Source of the DNA: Escherichia phage vB_EcoM_Schickermooser
DNA length: 64,000 nt
Strand: one strand, 5' to 3'
Sequence record: NC_048196.1
Both the position numbers and the translations under genes were made by a program. Position 1 is the first letter of the stretch, and every line of letters begins with the position of its first letter. This document shows positions 42,851 to 57,871 of the stretch, piece by piece. The notes beneath the pieces were generated by a model. It ran no database searches. It was not told the DNA's origin and saw only the letters and a program-made list of their open reading frames with translations.

Positions 42851-43115
42851 AATTTTCCTCCTGAATTCCTACTGCGCCTTCTTCTGGGTAATCTGTATAA
42901 TAAGCTACCCTACCTTGATAGATAACATCACCATCATCATTGTAGATTGCTGTATCTTCTTGAATTGTTATTTTAACGTCAAGTAAATCTGGGTCTTTCT
43001 CGATGGTGTAGTTTAAACCTAACATTTCAAACAGTTCGAAAATTTCGTTACCTGTTAATGTAATGCTCATATTTCCTCCTTTTATTGTGGTTAGCAGAGT
43101 ATACACTAATATCAA
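42843..43115 (-). CDS. hypothetical protein
   Basis: AAGGAGGAAAT SD then ATG. Confidence 0.5.
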   Translation of the reverse strand: MILVYTLLTTIKGGNMSITLTGNEIFELFEMLGLNYTIEKDPDLLDVKITIQEDTAIYNDDGDVIYQGRVAYYTDYPEEGAVGIQEENYV

Positions 43116-43125
43116 ATTTTTGTCA
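43097..43125 (-). promoter_or_regulatory. sigma70-like promoter, minus strand (TTGACA-N17-TATACT)
   Basis: directly downstream of terminator hairpin 43132-43150. Confidence 0.5.
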
Positions 43126-43131
43126 ATAAAA

Positions 43132-49853: not shown

Positions 49854-50786
49854 TTATCCTCCAAAAAAGTTTTCGATTTTTTCACGTCGCTCTTGCTGAT
49901 TTAAAGCAGCCCATTGAGTCTTCGTAAAATTATTTCGAATCCATTCTAACAAAGCGTAATATTCTTCGTCAACCATTTGTTTGGCATTTTTTGGATTATC
50001 CCAAATCAGATCCCACTTTTTATCTCCACCGCGCATAAGAAACTTCTTAGTAAGATAGTGTGGTGATTTAATTTTTAAAAGTAAGTTGAACGGATAGTTT
50101 GTTTCACGAACTACAAACCCTTCGTGTTTACAATGTTTAGACATTTCAACAACATCTGAAAACTTAACCATTGGATGAACTTCAGGACGCTTAAATTTGG
50201 TGACAGAAGCAATTCCATCAAGAGCACCTTCAGGTAACATAAAACTTGTCCCATCAGGATTTTGAATTCTGGCACCAATTAAGTATGCACCTGGTTCTTC
50301 TTCGACAATATGCGGATCAGAAGGATCACAGATTTCAAAAAGGAAAGTTGCTTTTGCACTCTCTGTCCATTTGATGAAATGTTCTATGTCATCACACTCT
50401 GAAACAATACGATTCTTTGCAATACTTGCAAAATCTGATTCAAGGCTTCCTGTTGTCGATACAATAAGTTGACCTTTATATACACCTACAGAGGCCATAA
50501 AACCATTTACTTTACGAACCACATCTACAAGTTCATCCAATGGTAGATCTGTGCCATTCTCAAAACGATTAAAAATCTTAGTGAAAGGCCAAATAACAAC
50601 ATTGTCATCAGCATCAACAACGATTCCGCGACATTCTAGAAGACGAGAATCAATGCTCCATAAGTTATCCCAGAAAACTTTGTTCTTATACTTAAGAACA
50701 GATAGACCAGAATACTCTCCTTCTTTATATGTTTTCTTATGAACTAAACCTTTTTCAACCAAATCGTCGCAATTAAATTTAGTCAC
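49854..50786 (-). CDS. RNA-ligase-like nucleotidyltransferase
   Basis: motif I KVNGFM, motif IV EGFVVRE, motif V LLKIK. Confidence 0.5.
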   Translation of the reverse strand: MTKFNCDDLVEKGLVHKKTYKEGEYSGLSVLKYKNKVFWDNLWSIDSRLLECRGIVVDADDNVVIWPFTKIFNRFENGTDLPLDELVDVVRKVNGFMASVGVYKGQLIVSTTGSLESDFASIAKNRIVSECDDIEHFIKWTESAKATFLFEICDPSDPHIVEEEPGAYLIGARIQNPDGTSFMLPEGALDGIASVTKFKRPEVHPMVKFSDVVEMSKHCKHEGFVVRETNYPFNLLLKIKSPHYLTKKFLMRGGDKKWDLIWDNPKNAKQMVDEEYYALLEWIRNNFTKTQWAALNQQERREKIENFFGG

Positions 50787-50787
50787 A

Positions 50788-51339
50788 TTACTCTCCTTTG
50801 ATTATTTTGTGATGGTCTACAGTCACGATATCTCGTTTACTCATCATAGAAATTATCTCATCAAAATGCAAGATTTTTCCGTGTGCATCCCAACCCACAT
50901 CTAACATTTTACCATAAGCTTCATCAGGGAAAGATCCGTGGGAATGCCCGTGTAGCATGATTGATCCACGACCTTGTTTATTCCAGGAGGCCATAGGGTA
51001 ATGACTTAAGACGAAGAACAGCTTCTGATATTTCACTTCGTCATAATACACCACTTCCCCATACTCTGCAAGCACTTCTCGGTGTTTGCTGTAGTCATGG
51101 TTCCCAACACAGTAGGTGATATCTCCTTGGAGACGAGAAGCAATTTTACGGGTATCTTCTTCAGTTCCGAAACAGAAGTCGCCCAAATGCCACATCTTAA
51201 CACCAGGAGTAGTAGCACATTTGTTCCATGCTTCGATCAAGGCTTCTGTCATGTGGTCCATATCTTCCCACGGACGATATTCAGGAGCAAACTCTCGAAT
51301 ACGTTTATGCATAAAATGCAAATCGCTTGTAATAAACAT
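50788..51339 (-). CDS. calcineurin-like metallophosphoesterase
   Basis: SDLHF, LGDFCFG, GNHD and HGHSH motifs. Confidence 0.65.
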   Translation of the reverse strand: MFITSDLHFMHKRIREFAPEYRPWEDMDHMTEALIEAWNKCATTPGVKMWHLGDFCFGTEEDTRKIASRLQGDITYCVGNHDYSKHREVLAEYGEVVYYDEVKYQKLFFVLSHYPMASWNKQGRGSIMLHGHSHGSFPDEAYGKMLDVGWDAHGKILHFDEIISMMSKRDIVTVDHHKIIKGE

Positions 51340-55707: not shown

Positions 55708-55737
55708 TTGACAAACGTATCCTTCATATGTTAGGAT
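55708..55737 (+). promoter_or_regulatory. sigma70-like promoter candidate (TTGACA-N18-TAGGAT)
   Basis: shares the cTATTGACA ... TAG..T architecture seen at 56295, 57264 and 63426. Confidence 0.45.
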
Positions 55738-55946: not shown

Positions 55947-56021
55947 GGCCCTGTAGCTCAATGGGAGAGCTGTCGGCTCATAACCGATAGGTAGCTGGAT
56001 CGAAACCAGCCAGGGCCACCA
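55947..56021 (+). tRNA. tRNA-Met (anticodon CAT; could be Ile2/lysidine type)
   Basis: manual cloverleaf: acceptor GGCCCTG/CAGGGCC, anticodon loop CTCATAA, encoded CCA. Confidence 0.6.
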
Positions 56022-56023
56022 AA

Positions 56024-56098
56024 GTCTTTATGGTGTAATGGATAGCACAGGAGTCTTCTAAACTCTTAGTCAAGGTTCGATTCCTTGTAAAGACACCA
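56024..56098 (+). tRNA. tRNA-Arg (anticodon TCT)
   Basis: acceptor GTCTTTA/TAAAGAC, anticodon loop CTTCTAA, T-loop TTCGATT, CCA. Confidence 0.6.
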
Positions 56099-56100
56099 GA

Positions 56101-56286
56101 ACATTTTAACATGAATTAGCTCAAGTGATTTGAACCCACTACTGATCATGGTGGCAGAGAATGAGGCAAGTATGTCAGACATTATAAACAAAGGCCACGG
56201 TTATATTAGAAGACATAAATGCTCGAAGAGCACCGTTCGTGGAGAACGGGGGTTGGTGGAGTCACCATTCATGGTAAAATGTTTTA
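56101..56286 (+). ncRNA. candidate structured RNA flanked by 17-bp near-perfect inverted repeat
   Basis: AACATTTTAACATGAAT at 56101 pairs with ATTCATGGTAAAATGTT at 56270 (one mismatch). Confidence 0.3.
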
Positions 56287-56294
56287 AAAAACTA

Positions 56295-56324
56295 TTGACA
56301 ACAAGTATTATTTTATGTTAGATT
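56295..56324 (+). promoter_or_regulatory. sigma70-like promoter candidate (TTGACA-N18-TAGATT)
   Basis: TTGACA 56295-56300; immediately upstream of tRNA-Ser. Confidence 0.45.
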
Positions 56325-56332
56325 ATAAGTAT

Positions 56333-56423
56333 GGAAGGGCAAATCGACGTGGCGACGAAAACGGTCTTGAAAACCGCCGAGCTTTAAAGAGCCTTGGGAG
56401 TTCGACTCTCCCTCCTTCCGCCA
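56333..56423 (+). tRNA. tRNA-Ser (anticodon TGA), type II
   Basis: acceptor GGAAGGG/TCCTTCC, loop CTTGAAA, long variable arm, CCA. Confidence 0.55.
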
Positions 56424-56428
56424 GGTTA

Positions 56429-56514
56429 GGTAGATTGGTGAAATGGTAGCCACGACAGTTTGCTAAACTGTAGTCGGAAACGGCGTGTAGGTTCGAGTCC
56501 TACATCTACCGCCA
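56429..56514 (+). tRNA. tRNA-Ser (anticodon GCT), type II
   Basis: acceptor GGTAGAT/ATCTACC, loop TTGCTAA, long variable arm, CCA. Confidence 0.6.
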
Positions 56515-56516
56515 AG

Positions 56517-56625
56517 TTCTTTTTAATGTAGCTTACTTTAATAGAGTAAACTTTCGGCAAATGGCCCCCACCATCTTACCGATAACTCATAGTTAGTGGT
56601 GCGAACACTGGCTATTTTAAAAAGA
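56517..56625 (+). ncRNA. candidate structured element between tRNAs
   Basis: TTCTTTTTAA at 56517 versus TTAAAAAGAA at 56616 inverted repeat; internal hairpins. Confidence 0.2.
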
Positions 56626-56643
56626 ATTTAAATACTAGCATTT

Positions 56644-56731
56644 AGGTGAGTTAATTCCGTAGGGGTAGCGGGGCAGACTGTAAATCTGTTATCATTGCGA
56701 TTCGGGTGGTTCGACTCCATCACTCACCACC
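56644..56731 (+). tRNA. tRNA-Tyr (anticodon GTA), type II
   Basis: acceptor GGTGAGT/ACTCACC, loop CTGTAAA, long variable arm, CCA. Confidence 0.55.
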
Positions 56732-56737
56732 AAATTA

Positions 56738-56823
56738 AGATGAGTTGGCTGAATGGTTTAAGCGGCGGACTGTTAATCCGTGTTCGAAAGAACGATATAG
56801 GTTCAAATCCTATACTCATCGCC
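56738..56823 (+). tRNA. type II tRNA with apparent anticodon GTT (Asn anticodon on long-variable-arm body)
   Basis: acceptor GATGAGT/ACTCATC, anticodon stem GCGGA/TCCGT, loop CTGTTAA, variable hairpin GTTC-GAAA-GAAC, CCA. Confidence 0.45.
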
Positions 56824-56830
56824 AGAATTA

Positions 56831-56908
56831 TGGACTTGTAGAGTTAAGGTAAACCCCCCAGTCGCCAAGAGGCTTCTGGAATTGCAGGTATCGAATCCTG
56901 CCGAGTCC
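56831..56908 (+). tRNA. tRNA-like element, atypical (anticodon not assignable)
   Basis: 7-bp acceptor pairing GGACTTG/CGAGTCC and T-arm GCAGG/CCTGC with 8-nt loop; no canonical anticodon arm. Confidence 0.3.
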
Positions 56909-56914
56909 CAGCTT

Positions 56915-56989
56915 TGCTCCTATAGTATAATGGCTATTACAACGGTTTTGTAATCCGTGGATCTCTGTTCGATTCAGAGTGGGAGCACC
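56915..56989 (+). tRNA. tRNA-Thr (anticodon TGT)
   Basis: acceptor GCTCCTA/TGGGAGC, loop TTTGTAA, T-arm CTCTG-TTCGATT-CAGAG, CCA. Confidence 0.55.
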
Positions 56990-57263
56990 AACACAACATT
57001 AAGGGCACTGTGATTGATCGTCGTATCCTGTGCACAAGGTCTGTTCGAAAGACAGTGTTCTTAGTATTGTGTTGATCACAAAAAGAGTTACCTGAAACTT
57101 GACCGGAGTAGGGTTGGATGGGGCAAAAGAAGAAGCGGCTCTCCCATCGACAGCAACGAAGAATAATATTTGACTTTGGTTTTGTATTATTTTAAGTTAG
57201 CTTACCGAACGTAGGGCTAGTCACCCAATGGGATACTCGTCACTGTCCCACTCAATAAAACTA

Positions 57264-57293
57264 TTGACAACCAATAGTAAAATGTAGTATAGT
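57264..57293 (+). promoter_or_regulatory. sigma70-like promoter candidate (TTGACA-N18-TATAGT)
   Basis: TTGACA 57264-57269, TATAGT 57288-57293; upstream of tRNA-Gly. Confidence 0.5.
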
Positions 57294-57304
57294 AAAGATG
57301 TAGG

Positions 57305-57378
57305 GCGTTCTTGGTGTAGCGGTAGCATTCCGTCCTTCCAAGTCGGCGGCACGAGTTCGATCCTCGTAGAACGCTCCA
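57305..57378 (+). tRNA. tRNA-Gly (anticodon TCC)
   Basis: acceptor GCGTTCT/AGAACGC, loop CTTCCAA, T-arm ACGAG-TTCGATC-CTCGT, CCA. Confidence 0.55.
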
Positions 57379-57476
57379 AATTATTTAATAAAGGGTTGCC
57401 AGAAAACTTTCTCTTTTACTCATGGTTTTCTCCTTCTCTCACACCTCTTCTGGTTGCCCTTCATTAAATGATTTAT

Positions 57477-57552
57477 TGGTTTGTAGTGTAGTCAGGTAGC
57501 ACACGACACTTTGACTGTCGTAGGTTTGGTTCAAATCCAGACAGACCAGCCA
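57477..57552 (+). tRNA. tRNA-Gln (anticodon TTG)
   Basis: U1-A72 acceptor TGGTTTG/CAGACCA, anticodon stem CGACA/TGTCG, loop CTTTGAC, CCA. Confidence 0.55.
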
Positions 57553-57557
57553 TATAA

Positions 57558-57634
57558 CGGAATTTAGCTCAGTTTGGTAGAGCATACGCTTTGGGAGCGT
57601 AGGGTCGCAGGTTCGAATCCTGCAATTCCGACCA
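57558..57634 (+). tRNA. tRNA-Pro (anticodon TGG)
   Basis: acceptor CGGAATT/AATTCCG, loop TTTGGGA, T-arm GCAGG-TTCGAAT-CCTGC, CCA. Confidence 0.65.
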
Positions 57635-57640
57635 ATTTAA

Positions 57641-57714
57641 TGTTTCGTAGTTCAATGGTAGAACCCACGACTGATAATCGTGAGACACAAGTTCGATTCT
57701 TGTCGAAACAACCA
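57641..57714 (+). tRNA. tRNA-Ile (anticodon GAT)
   Basis: acceptor TGTTTCG/CGAAACA, anticodon stem CACGA/TCGTG, loop CTGATAA, CCA. Confidence 0.55.
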
Positions 57715-57717
57715 ATT

Positions 57718-57786
57718 TCCCGTTAGACTTACAGGATAAGAGTTCCACAGCTTATTGTGATGCTGGTTCGAATCCAGCACGGGATA
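57718..57786 (+). tRNA. tRNA-like element with non-canonical anticodon arm
   Basis: T-arm GCTGG-TTCGAAT-CCAGC and 6/7 acceptor pairing; best anticodon stem CACA/TGTG encloses a 6-nt loop; no CCA. Confidence 0.3.
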
Positions 57787-57792
57787 CATAAT

Positions 57793-57871
57793 AGCGGGAT
57801 AGAGGAGTCTGGTCGTCCTCGCCAGTTTCATATGCTGGAGATCATCGGTTCAAATCCGATTCCCGCCTCCA
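57793..57871 (+). tRNA. tRNA-Met (anticodon CAT), 1-72 mismatch (initiator-like?)
   Basis: acceptor AGCGGGA/TCCCGCC with A1-C72 mismatch, anticodon stem CCAGT/GCTGG, loop TTCATAT, T-loop TTCAAAT, CCA. Confidence 0.5.

Follow-up and report, generated by a model that had tools for sequence, protein, structure and literature searches.

The tRNA cluster of Escherichia phage vB_EcoM_Schickermooser (NC_048196.1) contains two tRNA-like elements, A and B, which are judged, at a probability of roughly 0.55, to be functional, non-decoding tRNA mimics that are neither dying tRNA genes nor decoders. Element A (56832..56908, + strand) is a 77-nt RNA gene found between tRNA-Asn (56739-56824) and tRNA-Thr (56916-56990), and element B (57717..57785, + strand) is an RNA gene of about 68 nt found between tRNA-Ile (57641-57714) and tRNA-Met (57793-57871). 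All positions are those of the window, the whole 64,000-nt stretch of DNA that was analysed. The initial annotation had described a 7-bp acceptor, an 8-nt T-loop, and no anticodon arm at 56831-56908, and a canonical T-arm, a CACA/UGUG stem around 6 nt, and no CCA at 57718-57786. All of these features can be seen in the sequence, with the true start of A at 56832 and B corrected to 57717-57785. Three roles had been suggested for the elements: unusual decoders, pseudo-tRNAs, or tRNA-derived regulatory RNAs. The first two are disfavoured by the evidence below, and the third is favoured in the form of tRNA-derived RNAs that would have another, non-decoding role.

The cluster in the window is the tRNA array of Phapecoctavirus (phAPEC8-like) phages of E. 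coli. ARAGORN called 10 tRNAs in the cluster and none at A or B. Similarly, an Rfam scan at E<=10 gave 11 tRNA-model matches in the region and left the A and B sites without a match to any model, including the tRNA model (RF00005, gathering threshold 29 bits); the orthologues in JohannJBalmer and A7_1 were unmatched by RF00005 at E<=1. The clean cloverleaf call that would have spoken against the initial description was thus not obtained, both ARAGORN and the Rfam tRNA model being silent at the two sites. Both elements are on the same strand as their tRNA neighbours and 6-7 nt away from them. A consensus scan only, which is the basis of both assignments, revealed a promoter-like site (TTGACA-18 nt-TAGATT) at 56295..56324 (+), heading a Ser-like tRNA, Ser, Tyr, Asn, A, and Thr, and a second (TTGACA-18 nt-TATAGT, 11/12 matches) at 57264..57293 (+), heading Gly, Gln, Pro, Ile, B, and Met. 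No credible ORF was found at the operon context of A and B. When folded, A was more stable than its dinucleotide shuffles with z=-3.2 (0/200 as good) and B with z=-2.35 (4/200 as good). In the annotated E. coli phage records examined A and B are unmarked, and a relative of B in phiEB49 is labelled "tRNA-Val". The A and B slots are unannotated in most records, and spurious small ORFs are found over some of them.

The acceptor of A is formed by GGACUUG (56832..56838, +) and CGAGUCC (56902..56908, +), which pair at 7/7 positions including one U.G. The 3' strand is followed by the trailer CAGCUUU, with no CCA. A U at position 8 (U56839) and a U just before the T stem (U56883) are both present. The D-arm (56841..56856, +; sequence UAGAGUUAAGGUAAACCC), placed by alignment and pair counts, consists of GAG, the loop UUAAGGUAAA, and CCC, and its middle pair is an A.C mismatch. 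The anticodon arm is replaced by a hairpin, CCAG-UC-GCC-AAGA-GGC-UU-CUGG (56858..56879, +), which in the MFE fold spans 22 nt with a 2x2 internal loop and an AAGA tetraloop and lacks a 7-nt anticodon loop. The T-arm (56884..56901, +) is GCAGG, the loop UAUCGAAU, and CCUGC, with the stem at 56884-88/56897-901 and the loop at 56889-96. Set against the T-arm and acceptor of a tRNA, A has the 7-bp acceptor and the 5-bp T stem, with a loop of 8 nt instead of 7.

In B the same comparison gives a canonical T-arm, GCUGG-UUCGAAU-CCAGC (57762..57778, +; read from the sequence), and an acceptor of 6 bp (UCCCGU/ACGGGA) with a U.U mismatch at 1:72. The D-arm (57726..57745, +) has an outer GA/UC and an inner CUU/AAG helix, a loop ACAGGAU which contains GG, and a 3-nt bulge, AGU. 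A hairpin, CACAG-CUUA-UUGUG (57746..57759, +), stands in place of the anticodon arm and can be read in two ways, either as CACA/UGUG around 6 nt or as CACAG/UUGUG (with a G.U) around the tetraloop CUUA. The trailer is ACAUAAU, again with no CCA. Encoded NCCA was read on the true tRNAs Tyr, Asn, Thr, Gly, Gln, Pro, Ile, and Met (at 57793).

Comparison with related phages, which the initial annotation had proposed as a check, showed compensatory changes which preserve both folds in divergent phages. Since A is represented by only two alleles and B by four lineages, the counts of covarying pairs are small. An orthologue of A was found in ~40 phi92-like phage records, where it likewise lies between tRNA-Asn and tRNA-Thr. 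Its T-arm is GUAGG-UAUCAAAU-CCUAC, keeping the 8-nt loop. Relative to the window, both sides have changed at 2:71, 3:70, and the T-stem pair 50:64, the 6:67 pair is U-A instead of U.G, and the A.C mismatch in the middle of the D stem is an A-U pair. The middle hairpin is shorter, at 16 nt as against 22. Across the A alignment 93% of cells are paired, compared with 25-55% when the partners are slid. Among seven Phapecoctavirus genomes only 1/77 columns of A is substituted versus 47/321 in the next spacer, between Thr and Gly; the single varying column is the third base of the apical loop (G/U/A), and A is also less variable than tRNA-Thr and tRNA-Pro. In PD06 a near-identical, Phapecoctavirus-type A is found beside diverged tRNAs, an arrangement which points to recombination, and recombination could mimic low diversity of A. 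Patterns combining the D-loop and T-loop found closer relatives of A only in Stephanstirmvirinae contigs. A looser gapped pattern was dominated by chance matches.

Homologues of B were found in A7_1/UPEC06-type phages and in phiEB49, and the phi92-type gap between Phe and Leu was found to have no B orthologue. The phiEB49 relative, annotated as tRNA-Val(AAC), scores 24.6 bits with RF00005 against the threshold of 29 and has a 7-nt loop, UUAACAA, in the anticodon-arm position. In the other lineages this position is occupied by hairpins, CACAACG-UAU-CGUUGUG in A7_1 and CGCAACG-UCU-CGUUGUG in UPEC06, and in both of these CCA or NCCA follows the element. Over the four lineages, 22 pairs are 95.5% paired versus 36-48% with the partners slid, and six base pairs have changed on both sides. 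The outer pair of the D-arm is A-U in the window and G-C in the relatives, and the 49:65 pair is G-C, A-U, or G.U depending on the lineage. All six substitutions within the genus fall in loops, a bulge, or linkers, or turn A-U into G.U; the D-arm bulge base, for instance, varies between U and A within Phapecoctavirus. In one isolate the D-loop GG has become AG, with loss of the G18 equivalent. The D-loop motif AGGAUAAGA combined with a T-loop was tried as a route to further relatives of B and was rejected, the matches being unrelated phage tRNAs.

Further genomic analysis revealed a family of phage RNAs which shares the odd T-loop of A. More than 100 distinct tRNA-Leu-derived elements (102 unique) were found in phages and prophages of IMG/VR, which are uncultivated and belong to hosts from several bacterial phyla. 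The signature of the family is an 8-nt T-loop, UAUCRAAY, on a 5-bp stem, together with a 7-bp closing helix; the elements are 63-266 nt long and hypervariable in the middle. With the two acceptor strands defined purely by where they adjoin the D-arm and T-arm motifs, full 7/7 pairing was obtained in 45/55 elements with 51 different acceptor sequences, while shifted or shuffled controls mostly gave 2-4 of 7 pairs. Overall, the family is 98% paired, and both-sided changes are found in 6/7 acceptor and 4/5 T-stem pairs. In 101/102 elements a U precedes the T stem, and a canonical anticodon arm occurs in only 4/90. The typical D-arm is of tRNA-Leu type, UGGCGGAAG(A)UAGACGC, from which the G18G19 doublet has been lost. 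A minority of the family, for example L060, L062, and L261, have other D-arms. The discriminator base is A in 39, C in 28, U in 24, and G in 11 elements, and CCA or NCCA follows about 12% of them. For 80/102 members no other tRNA was found in the fetched locus, and the median distances to the neighbouring ORFs are 173 and 255 nt.

Element A is a probable member of this 8-nt T-loop family. Its 18-nt T-arm, UGCAGGUAUCGAAUCCUGC, is identical in 98 IMG/VR contigs and is the commonest T-arm of the family; the loop on its GCAGG/CCUGC stem fits the signature, and the loop of the phi92-type orthologue is also a family variant. The closing helix of A, with 7/7 pairs, the U at position 8, and the U before the T stem, likewise agrees with the family. 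In contrast, A lacks the family D-arm motif GGCGGAAGAUAGACGC; its D-loop is resembled by the variant UAAGGUAA of L062. A family covariance model (R1), which consists of a trimmed core and was built without the lineage of A, gave A as its top match in the window (56861-56902, 22.3 bits, E=3e-5). This match is only local, with the middle insert penalised, because the trimmed core cannot span the middle hairpin of A. The phi92-type orthologue was matched at full length with 27.0 bits (E=2e-7), where true tRNAs reach at most 18.7 bits. The T-arm of A equals that of the window tRNA-Pro with one inserted A, and because of this the insertion in the T-loop could be independent. B has no UAUCRAAY 8-nt T-loop and is a separate, small lineage, distinct from this family.

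The family apparently is undescribed and absent from Rfam. Rfam scans of 37 family loci, by gathering threshold and by E-value, gave only two weak matches to the manA model, and a scan of class-2 elements gave none. No description of the family was found in the literature searched on tRNA-like phage RNAs, RNAs that lack an anticodon, or 8-nt T-loops, and in a 2023 catalogue of 10,006 candidate structured RNAs from viruses the tRNA-like ones are touched on in general terms only. Clustering of the ORFs lying up to 5 kb from 100 family loci revealed no conserved protein partner; the commonest cluster occurs at only 9/100 loci, and the genes nearby serve ordinary DNA metabolism, for example those for a methylase, ThyX, and dCTP deaminase.

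Non-decoding tRNA-shaped RNAs in phage tRNA clusters have been known since T4 RNA C (species 1 RNA, rnaC) in the 1970s, and to our knowledge no function has been found for them since. T4 RNA C is a small stable RNA. Like A and B, it is encoded inside a phage tRNA cluster and lacks an anticodon arm, and its 3' part is a T-arm (CCGGG-UUCGAAU-CCCGG) with, after it, a strand which pairs with the 5' end of the RNA (5/7, by our sequence reading). It differs in its length of 139 nt, its normal 7-nt T-loop, its origin in Straboviridae, and its lack of sequence similarity to A or B, and R1 scores it at only 11.6 bits. It is still counted among "RNAs of yet unknown functions" (PMC9697503). A second comparison is offered by manA RNA (RF01745), a phage-borne, multi-stem RNA which was proposed as a cis-regulatory riboswitch candidate without use of the terms "tRNA-like" or "T-loop" (Weinberg et al. 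2010, PMC2864571). In common with the family, manA has a closing helix followed by UG..GAAU, tolerates insertions, and carries a 3' hairpin which adjoins the closing strand and whose loop starts with UA and ends with AAU. The two weak matches of the manA model are to the L072 element itself (23.1 bits, E=3e-4) and beside the L013 element (25.9 bits), and in cyanophage S-CREM1 manA lies exactly between tRNA-Leu and tRNA-Asn. However, its closing helix has 5 bp and not 7 and its 3' loop 11 nt and not 8; neither A nor B is matched at E<=10 by the manA model (gathering threshold 55.2 bits; true manA 96.6 bits), and the S-CREM1 manA is missed by R1. The tRNA-like domain of tmRNA (RF00023) and YrlA (RF02553) also mimic the acceptor, T-arm, and elbow without an anticodon. 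However, tmRNA has a reading frame, pseudoknots, and CCA, and the two ends of YrlA lie on the anticodon-stem side. ARAGORN found no tmRNA in the window, neither model matches A or B, and the sole YrlA match in the region (22.8 bits) runs across tRNA-Pro and tRNA-Ile. Finally, A and B share with canonical phage tRNAs the site in a tRNA array, the acceptor, D, and T arms, and U8, and differ from them, and from their pseudogenes, in having no anticodon loop or CCA and in falling below the Rfam threshold.

It could be argued that the elements are cis-acting processing placeholders, whose shape is kept only for RNase P and 3' trimming so that the neighbours (Asn/Thr and Ile/Met) mature, the excised RNA itself being inert. 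Precedents are known in plant mitochondrial t-elements and MALAT1 mascRNA, non-decoding mimics of the acceptor and T-arm which tRNA-processing enzymes recognise. Both precedents are of eukaryotic or organellar origin and help to form the ends of a neighbouring transcript; we know of no 8-nt T-loop in them and no homology to A or B, and in our Rfam scans of the window and the family loci the mascRNA model matched true tRNAs only. The conserved parts of A and B are indeed the yardstick of RNase P (a 7-bp acceptor on a 5-bp T stem, with the elbow), the substitute for the anticodon arm is free to vary, the spacing of 6-7 nt to the neighbours is tRNA-like, and manA in S-CREM1 likewise fills a slot between two tRNAs. 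However, flanking tRNAs have their own RNase P determinants, and loss of the element would be simpler, yet it is kept in two genera. The family members without another tRNA, at their distances from ORFs, are not tight punctuation, and the conserved 8-nt T-loop is left unexplained. A role limited to processing is considered rather unlikely. A DNA-level role, as a target or recombination site of homing endonucleases, has very little probability. Homing endonuclease genes are found in orthologous clusters, tRNA-Thr and tRNA-Pro occur in very divergent alleles, and A of PD06 lies between diverged tRNAs; compensatory pair changes, on the other hand, are the signature of selection on RNA, and the family flanks are unrelated and have no conserved endonuclease neighbour.

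The same pair changes bear on whether A and B are neutral pseudo-tRNAs which lost their anticodon loops and are drifting, their apparent conservation reflecting close kinship. The absence of the CCA that the true tRNAs of the cluster encode, the mismatches (U.U at 1:72 in B and A.C in the D stem of A), the loss of the G18 equivalent from B in one isolate, and the high identity everywhere within the genus would all fit decay. Nevertheless this reading is improbable, since comparison between genera and families shows the acceptor, T, and D helices to be preserved through compensating double changes, substitutions avoid stems, and A is far below the adjacent spacer in variability. The 8-nt T-loop of A, moreover, is kept in the phi92-type orthologue and in the more than 100 unrelated phage elements of a large, strongly covarying family. 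Unlike tRNA pseudogenes, A and B thus have a structure that is conserved by covariation and is not decaying. Decoding through an unorthodox loop, or an acceptor role in which CCA is added and an anticodon-blind synthetase charges the RNA for non-ribosomal aminoacyl transfer, is more improbable still. It would agree with the CCA or NCCA that comes after B in A7_1 and UPEC06 and after some family members, with the origin of the family D-arm in tRNA-Leu, whose E. coli synthetase does not read the anticodon, and with L261, which looks like an intact tRNA-Lys(UUU) with an 8-nt T-loop. However, A and B in the window have neither CCA nor a 7-nt anticodon loop, the tetraloop or triloop hairpin, with loops of 3-4 nt, differs between relatives, G3.U70 is absent, and the family D-loop has lost G18G19. 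With a plain hairpin in place of the anticodon loop, codons would be unreadable by A and B, and with no encoded CCA and a discriminator base that is not conserved, aminoacylation is unlikely.

As non-decoding tRNA mimics, A and B would be transcribed within the phage tRNA operons. They retain features of tRNA maturation, namely U8, a D-loop/T-loop elbow, and an acceptor that stacks on the 5-bp T stem, and because of these RNase P and 3' trimming should excise them like tRNAs. The excised RNAs would then accumulate as stable species of ~77 and 68 nt. The part under selection would be the "top half" of the tRNA with the elbow, and the most likely action in trans would be to occupy or recruit a factor that recognises tRNA shape. 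Candidates are RNase P, a tRNA-directed defence enzyme of the host, or an enzyme of modification or repair; because no conserved protein partner is found beside family members, no target is indicated.

A broader reading is put forward tentatively. A may be the E. coli-phage member of a very widespread tRNA-Leu-derived superfamily of phages and prophages, absent from Rfam and without a description in the literature searched. Cyanophage manA RNA could be a remote branch of it, with T4 RNA C analogous in function, and together they would be general phage "tRNA-shape" effectors engaging a host or phage factor that recognises tRNA. Such a superfamily might be defined by a 7-bp closing helix, a conserved D-arm, and hypervariable inserts in place of the anticodon arm. 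Its remodelled elbow might be built from either the 8-nt UAUCRAAY T-loop or a 7-bp stem capped by UGNRAGU. Were this true, the effectors might blunt tRNA-targeting immunity or redirect RNase P or repair enzymes.

For annotation, the lesson is that tRNA-shaped slots have been left empty or overlain by spurious small ORFs. Elements of the A and B type are under structural selection in a well-sampled group of E. coli phages, with about 125 isolates, and phAPEC8- or phi92-type phages on E. coli K-12 offer a tractable system for them. Should they act as tRNA mimics that counter tRNA-directed defences or processing enzymes of the host, these RNAs would represent a new class of small phage effectors.

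Two tRNA-shaped elements without an anticodon loop, designated A (56832-56908, + strand) and B (57717-57785, + strand), lie within the tRNA cluster, and re-reading of the sequence bore out their description in the initial annotation. A has a 7 bp acceptor (GGACUUG/CGAGUCC, followed by UA), a D-arm GAG-UUAAGGUAAA-CCC, a middle hairpin of 22 nt interrupted by an internal loop and capped by an AAGA tetraloop, and, after AAUU, a T-arm with an 8-nt loop (GCAGG-UAUCGAAU-CCUGC). B has a 6 bp acceptor with a U.U mismatch at 1:72, again followed by UA, a bulged D-arm whose loop contains GG, and a hairpin CACAG-CUUA-UUGUG followed by AU and a canonical T-arm. CCA is absent on the 3′ side of both. A folds with z=-3.2 (0 of 200 shuffles as good) and B with z=-2.35 (4 of 200). 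No credible overlapping ORF was found for either. A clean cloverleaf prediction would have spoken for ordinary tRNAs, and none was returned at A or B by ARAGORN or the Rfam scan, even at E≤10. Related records have no RNA annotation at either site, and a small 'hypothetical protein' placed over B in WPEC4 is probably spurious.

Element A is conserved with compensation. It is present at 95-100% identity in 86 records, almost all Phapecoctavirus. Across seven Phapecoctavirus genomes, one of its 77 columns is substituted, at base three of the apical loop, where three alleles occur; a C-run also varies once in length. In the Thr-Gly spacer 47 of 321 columns are substituted, and tRNA-Thr and tRNA-Pro are likewise more variable than A. 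With an Asn-A-Thr query, phi92-like Justusliebigvirus phages (JohannJBalmer, UAB_1) aligned across the full stretch at ~70% identity, and the orthologue of A was found there as an unannotated 79-nt gap between annotated tRNA-Asn and tRNA-Thr. This allele occurs in 40 records, with identity no lower than 98.8% in 39. Its T-loop is also 8 nt (UAUCAAAU), its D stem pairs fully as GAG/CUC, and its pairs are altered at acceptor positions 2:71 (G-C to U-A), 3:70 (A-U to G-C), and 6:67 (U.G to U-A) and once in the T stem (C-G to U-A). In a four-sequence alignment 93% of cells are paired, versus 25-55% when pairing partners are slid. The middle hairpin of the orthologue is shorter (6 bp stem and tetraloop), so the substitute for the anticodon arm can vary freely and the rest of A is held. 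Recombination also shapes the locus, since in PD06, assigned to Justusliebigvirus, diverged tRNAs flank an A of the Phapecoctavirus type.

Element B is likewise conserved with compensation. It was found in 76 records; in addition to Phapecoctavirus, they include A7_1, A73, W70, and UPEC06, at 81-85% identity, and a siphovirus, phiEB49, at 77%. It is absent from the matching gap of phi92-type phages. The D region (UUAGRCUUAYAGGAUAAGA) and T-arm are nearly invariant among the homologues. The 'anticodon' arm is CACAG-CUUA-UUGUG in the window, CACAACG-UAU-CGUUGUG in A7_1, CGCAACG-UCU-CGUUGUG in UPEC06, and has a 7-nt loop, UUAACAA, in phiEB49. The 22-pair structure has 95.5% of cells paired versus 36-48% in slid controls, and six pairs have both sides changed, including an outer D-arm pair, which is G-C in relatives and A-U in the window. 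Within Phapecoctavirus, the six substituted columns fall in the bulge, hairpin loop, linker, D-loop, or trailer, or convert A-U to G.U. ARAGORN called neither the A7_1 nor the UPEC06 copy, and the A7_1 copy had no Rfam match at E≤1. The phiEB49 homologue (positions 299-375 of the fetched locus) is annotated as tRNA-Val(AAC), which reaches 24.6 bits against the Rfam tRNA model (threshold 29) and may not be a working tRNA. Such a tRNA would require A34 in its anticodon, an unusual feature among bacteria.

The T-arm 18-mer of A, GCAGGTATCGAATCCTGC, was found in 98 IMG/VR contigs with unrelated flanks. In nearly all of these, the 7 nt 3′ of the T-arm form pairs with a 7-mer that lies 60-250 nt upstream. 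After this 7-mer comes a D-arm of the tRNA-Leu type, UGGCGGAAG(A)UAGACGC; the G18G19 doublet has been lost from its loop. With both acceptor strands set solely by their position beside the D-arm and T-arm motifs, 7/7 pairs form in 45 of 55 unique elements and 6/7 in another eight, over 51 different acceptor sequences; controls with a 1-3 nt shift or swapped partners mostly pair 2-4 of 7. A D-arm 18-mer query, independent of A, found 78 contigs, whose T-arms are of two classes: class 1, NNNRG-UAUCRAAY-CYNNN with covarying stems, and class 2, a 7 bp stem with loop UGNRAGU. Over 31 D-arm-anchored cores, 98% of cells are paired versus 35-44% slid, and both sides have changed in 6/7 acceptor pairs and 4/5 T-stem pairs. 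The 102 unique class 1 elements over all loci range from 63 to 266 nt, with a median of 130. They share no conserved discriminator, U precedes the T stem in 101, NCCA follows in 12, ARAGORN calls three, and 80 have no further tRNA in the fetched locus. A canonical anticodon arm follows the D-arm in only 4 of 90 family elements.

Among 185,579 bacterial species genomes there are 26 matches to the D-arm motif; 12 are complete elements, mostly class 2, from genera such as Paenibacillus and Chryseobacterium and also Clostridia assemblies, and are presumed to be prophages. Cultured phages with the T-arm are Phapecoctavirus, Lactobacillus phage SAC12B, and a group of Rhizobium phages; in none is it annotated as RNA. 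No conserved neighbouring protein emerged beside family elements. Several contigs carry two elements close together or in tandem (L119, L164, L104, L118, L123, L142). Class 2 elements (e.g., L108, L130, L150, L154, L157, L178, L188) share the tRNA-Leu-type D-arm and 7 bp closing helix, with a T-like arm such as GCAAGGG-UGAAAGU-CCCUUGC. They gave no Rfam match at E≤1 and are common in loci from Firmicutes genomes, which are probably prophages. Some 8-nt T-loop elements have ordinary class I D-arms (L261, 71 nt; L254; L201), and the anticodon arm of L261 is canonical, its loop AUUUUAA reading as Lys UUU. The 8-nt T-loop may therefore also occur in working tRNAs.

A shares with this family the T-loop signature, the 5 bp T stem stacked on a 7 bp helix, U8, the U preceding the T stem, and the absence of both anticodon loop and CCA. 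Its D-arm does not match the canonical family motif; the D-loop UUAAGGUAAA resembles minority variants such as UAAGGUAA of locus L062. R1, a trimmed covariance model built from D-arm-anchored cores without A's lineage, gave A as its top match in the window (22.3 bits, E=3e-5), local only because the trimmed model is unable to span the middle hairpin. The phi92-type orthologue, which never served as a search pattern and differs in T stem and loop variant, matched end to end (27.0 bits, E=2e-7), and the true tRNAs of those loci scored at most 18.7 bits. Conversely, the T-arm of A is that of the window's tRNA-Pro (GCAGG-UUCGAAU-CCUGC) plus one A, so the T-loop insertion could be independent. On balance, A likely belongs to the family. 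A weak R1 match at 43081-43130 (+ strand; 14.6 bits, E=0.019), AT-rich with loop UAUCAAAU, is probably chance.

Rfam 15 has no family at A, B, or the family-element sites, and no account of an 8-nt T-loop family turned up in literature searches. The only sub-threshold matches were to manA, a riboswitch candidate from cyanophages whose function is unknown, with 23.1 bits (E=3e-4) on the L072 element and 25.9 bits beside the L013 element, the latter directly downstream (L013 1758-1918). The manA consensus resembles the family in its closing helix, UG..GAAU with an insert, and 3′ hairpin loop starting with UA and ending with AAU, but has a helix of 5 bp and a loop of 11 nt, and R1 did not detect a true manA. 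In Synechococcus phage S-CREM1 (OP535465), a manA RNA (96.6 bits; 716-930 of the fetched locus) fills the slot between tRNA-Leu and tRNA-Asn without a spacer, in an array that also holds wcaG (246-343) and abiF (1032-1068) RNAs. Slotted between tRNAs, it looks more like a tRNA-type gene and fits poorly as a 5′ UTR riboswitch. The classical precedent is T4 rnaC (species 1 RNA), which is encoded inside the tRNA cluster of T4 and terminates with a T-arm and acceptor-like helix; its function is still unknown (PMC9697503).

The surrounding cluster is 98-99% identical to those of Phapecoctavirus phages such as WPEC4 and Mt1B1_P17 (phAPEC8-like, Stephanstirmvirinae). ARAGORN finds ten tRNAs, all on the + strand (55947-57871), and the true tRNAs read through (Tyr, Asn, Thr, Gly, Gln, Pro, Ile, and Met at 57793) encode NCCA. 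tRNA-Tyr(GUA) (56645-56729, + strand, or 56645-56732 with encoded CCA; Rfam tRNA, 39 bits) was missed by ARAGORN and is flagged 'tRNA-Pseudo-GTA' in the Mt1B1_P17 record, where the second tRNA-Met (57793-57871, + strand; 50 bits) is 'Pseudo-CAT'. A class II, Ser(UGA)-like tRNA whose D-arm is odd (56333-56419, + strand), also missed by ARAGORN, matches the tRNA-Sec model only (38 bits, threshold 47); its JohannJBalmer orthologue, annotated tRNA-Ser(TCA), likewise scores 35 bits. Among the seven genomes, tRNA-Thr (56916-56990; 14/75 substituted columns) and tRNA-Pro (57558-57634; 23/77) are very divergent alleles with nearly invariant neighbours, suggesting replacement through recombination. Orthologous clusters contain homing endonuclease genes. 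The larger spacers fold as long closing stems on the + strand, far better than shuffles (57379-57476, z=-5.7; 56988-57090, z=-4.1; 56515-56644, z=-3.0), and could be more structured RNAs or sites for RNase III. The first of them, with 1/98 substituted columns among the seven genomes, forms a long and almost perfect inverted repeat around a pyrimidine-rich loop. Three promoter-like sites on the + strand, all with a perfect TTGACA and a spacer of 18 nt, lie at 55708-55737, 56295-56324 (upstream of A), and 57264-57293 (upstream of B), in each case shortly before a tRNA or tRNA-like gene. Three transcription units may make up the cluster, a lead only, as the promoter-like total is not above that of shuffles.

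Conservation in A and B covers the acceptor/T-stem stack, U8, and the loops of the D- and T-arms; the would-be anticodon arm varies. The conserved features are determinants for RNase P and other enzymes that recognize the top half of tRNA. As these are kept, the RNAs should be cut out and stable; they would be unable to decode, and charging is unlikely. We favour a role in trans as mimics of tRNA shape, at a probability of about 0.55. Both elements lie on the tRNA strand with neighbours 6-7 nt away, and a purely cis role, in processing or as a placeholder, is a tentative alternative. Of the readings first proposed, tRNA-derived RNAs are retained and decoders are not; simple pseudogenes are disfavoured by conservation with compensation, and neutral decay is improbable. 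Charging for another purpose is very doubtful for RNAs with no encoded CCA, and a role at the DNA level, for elements whose pairs have changed on both sides, is the least probable.

A T4 Rnl1-type RNA ligase (49854-50786; PF09511, 56 bits) and an adjoining calcineurin-like metallophosphoesterase (50788-51339), both on the − strand and ~5 kb from the cluster, look like a tRNA-repair module, which suggests that the phage is exposed to tRNA-cleaving host defences. Given this nearby pair and the abiF RNA in the cyanophage array, a tie between A/B and tRNA-directed host defence is plausible but unproven. The probable membership of A in the 8-nt T-loop family links it to a large unannotated family of phage RNAs.
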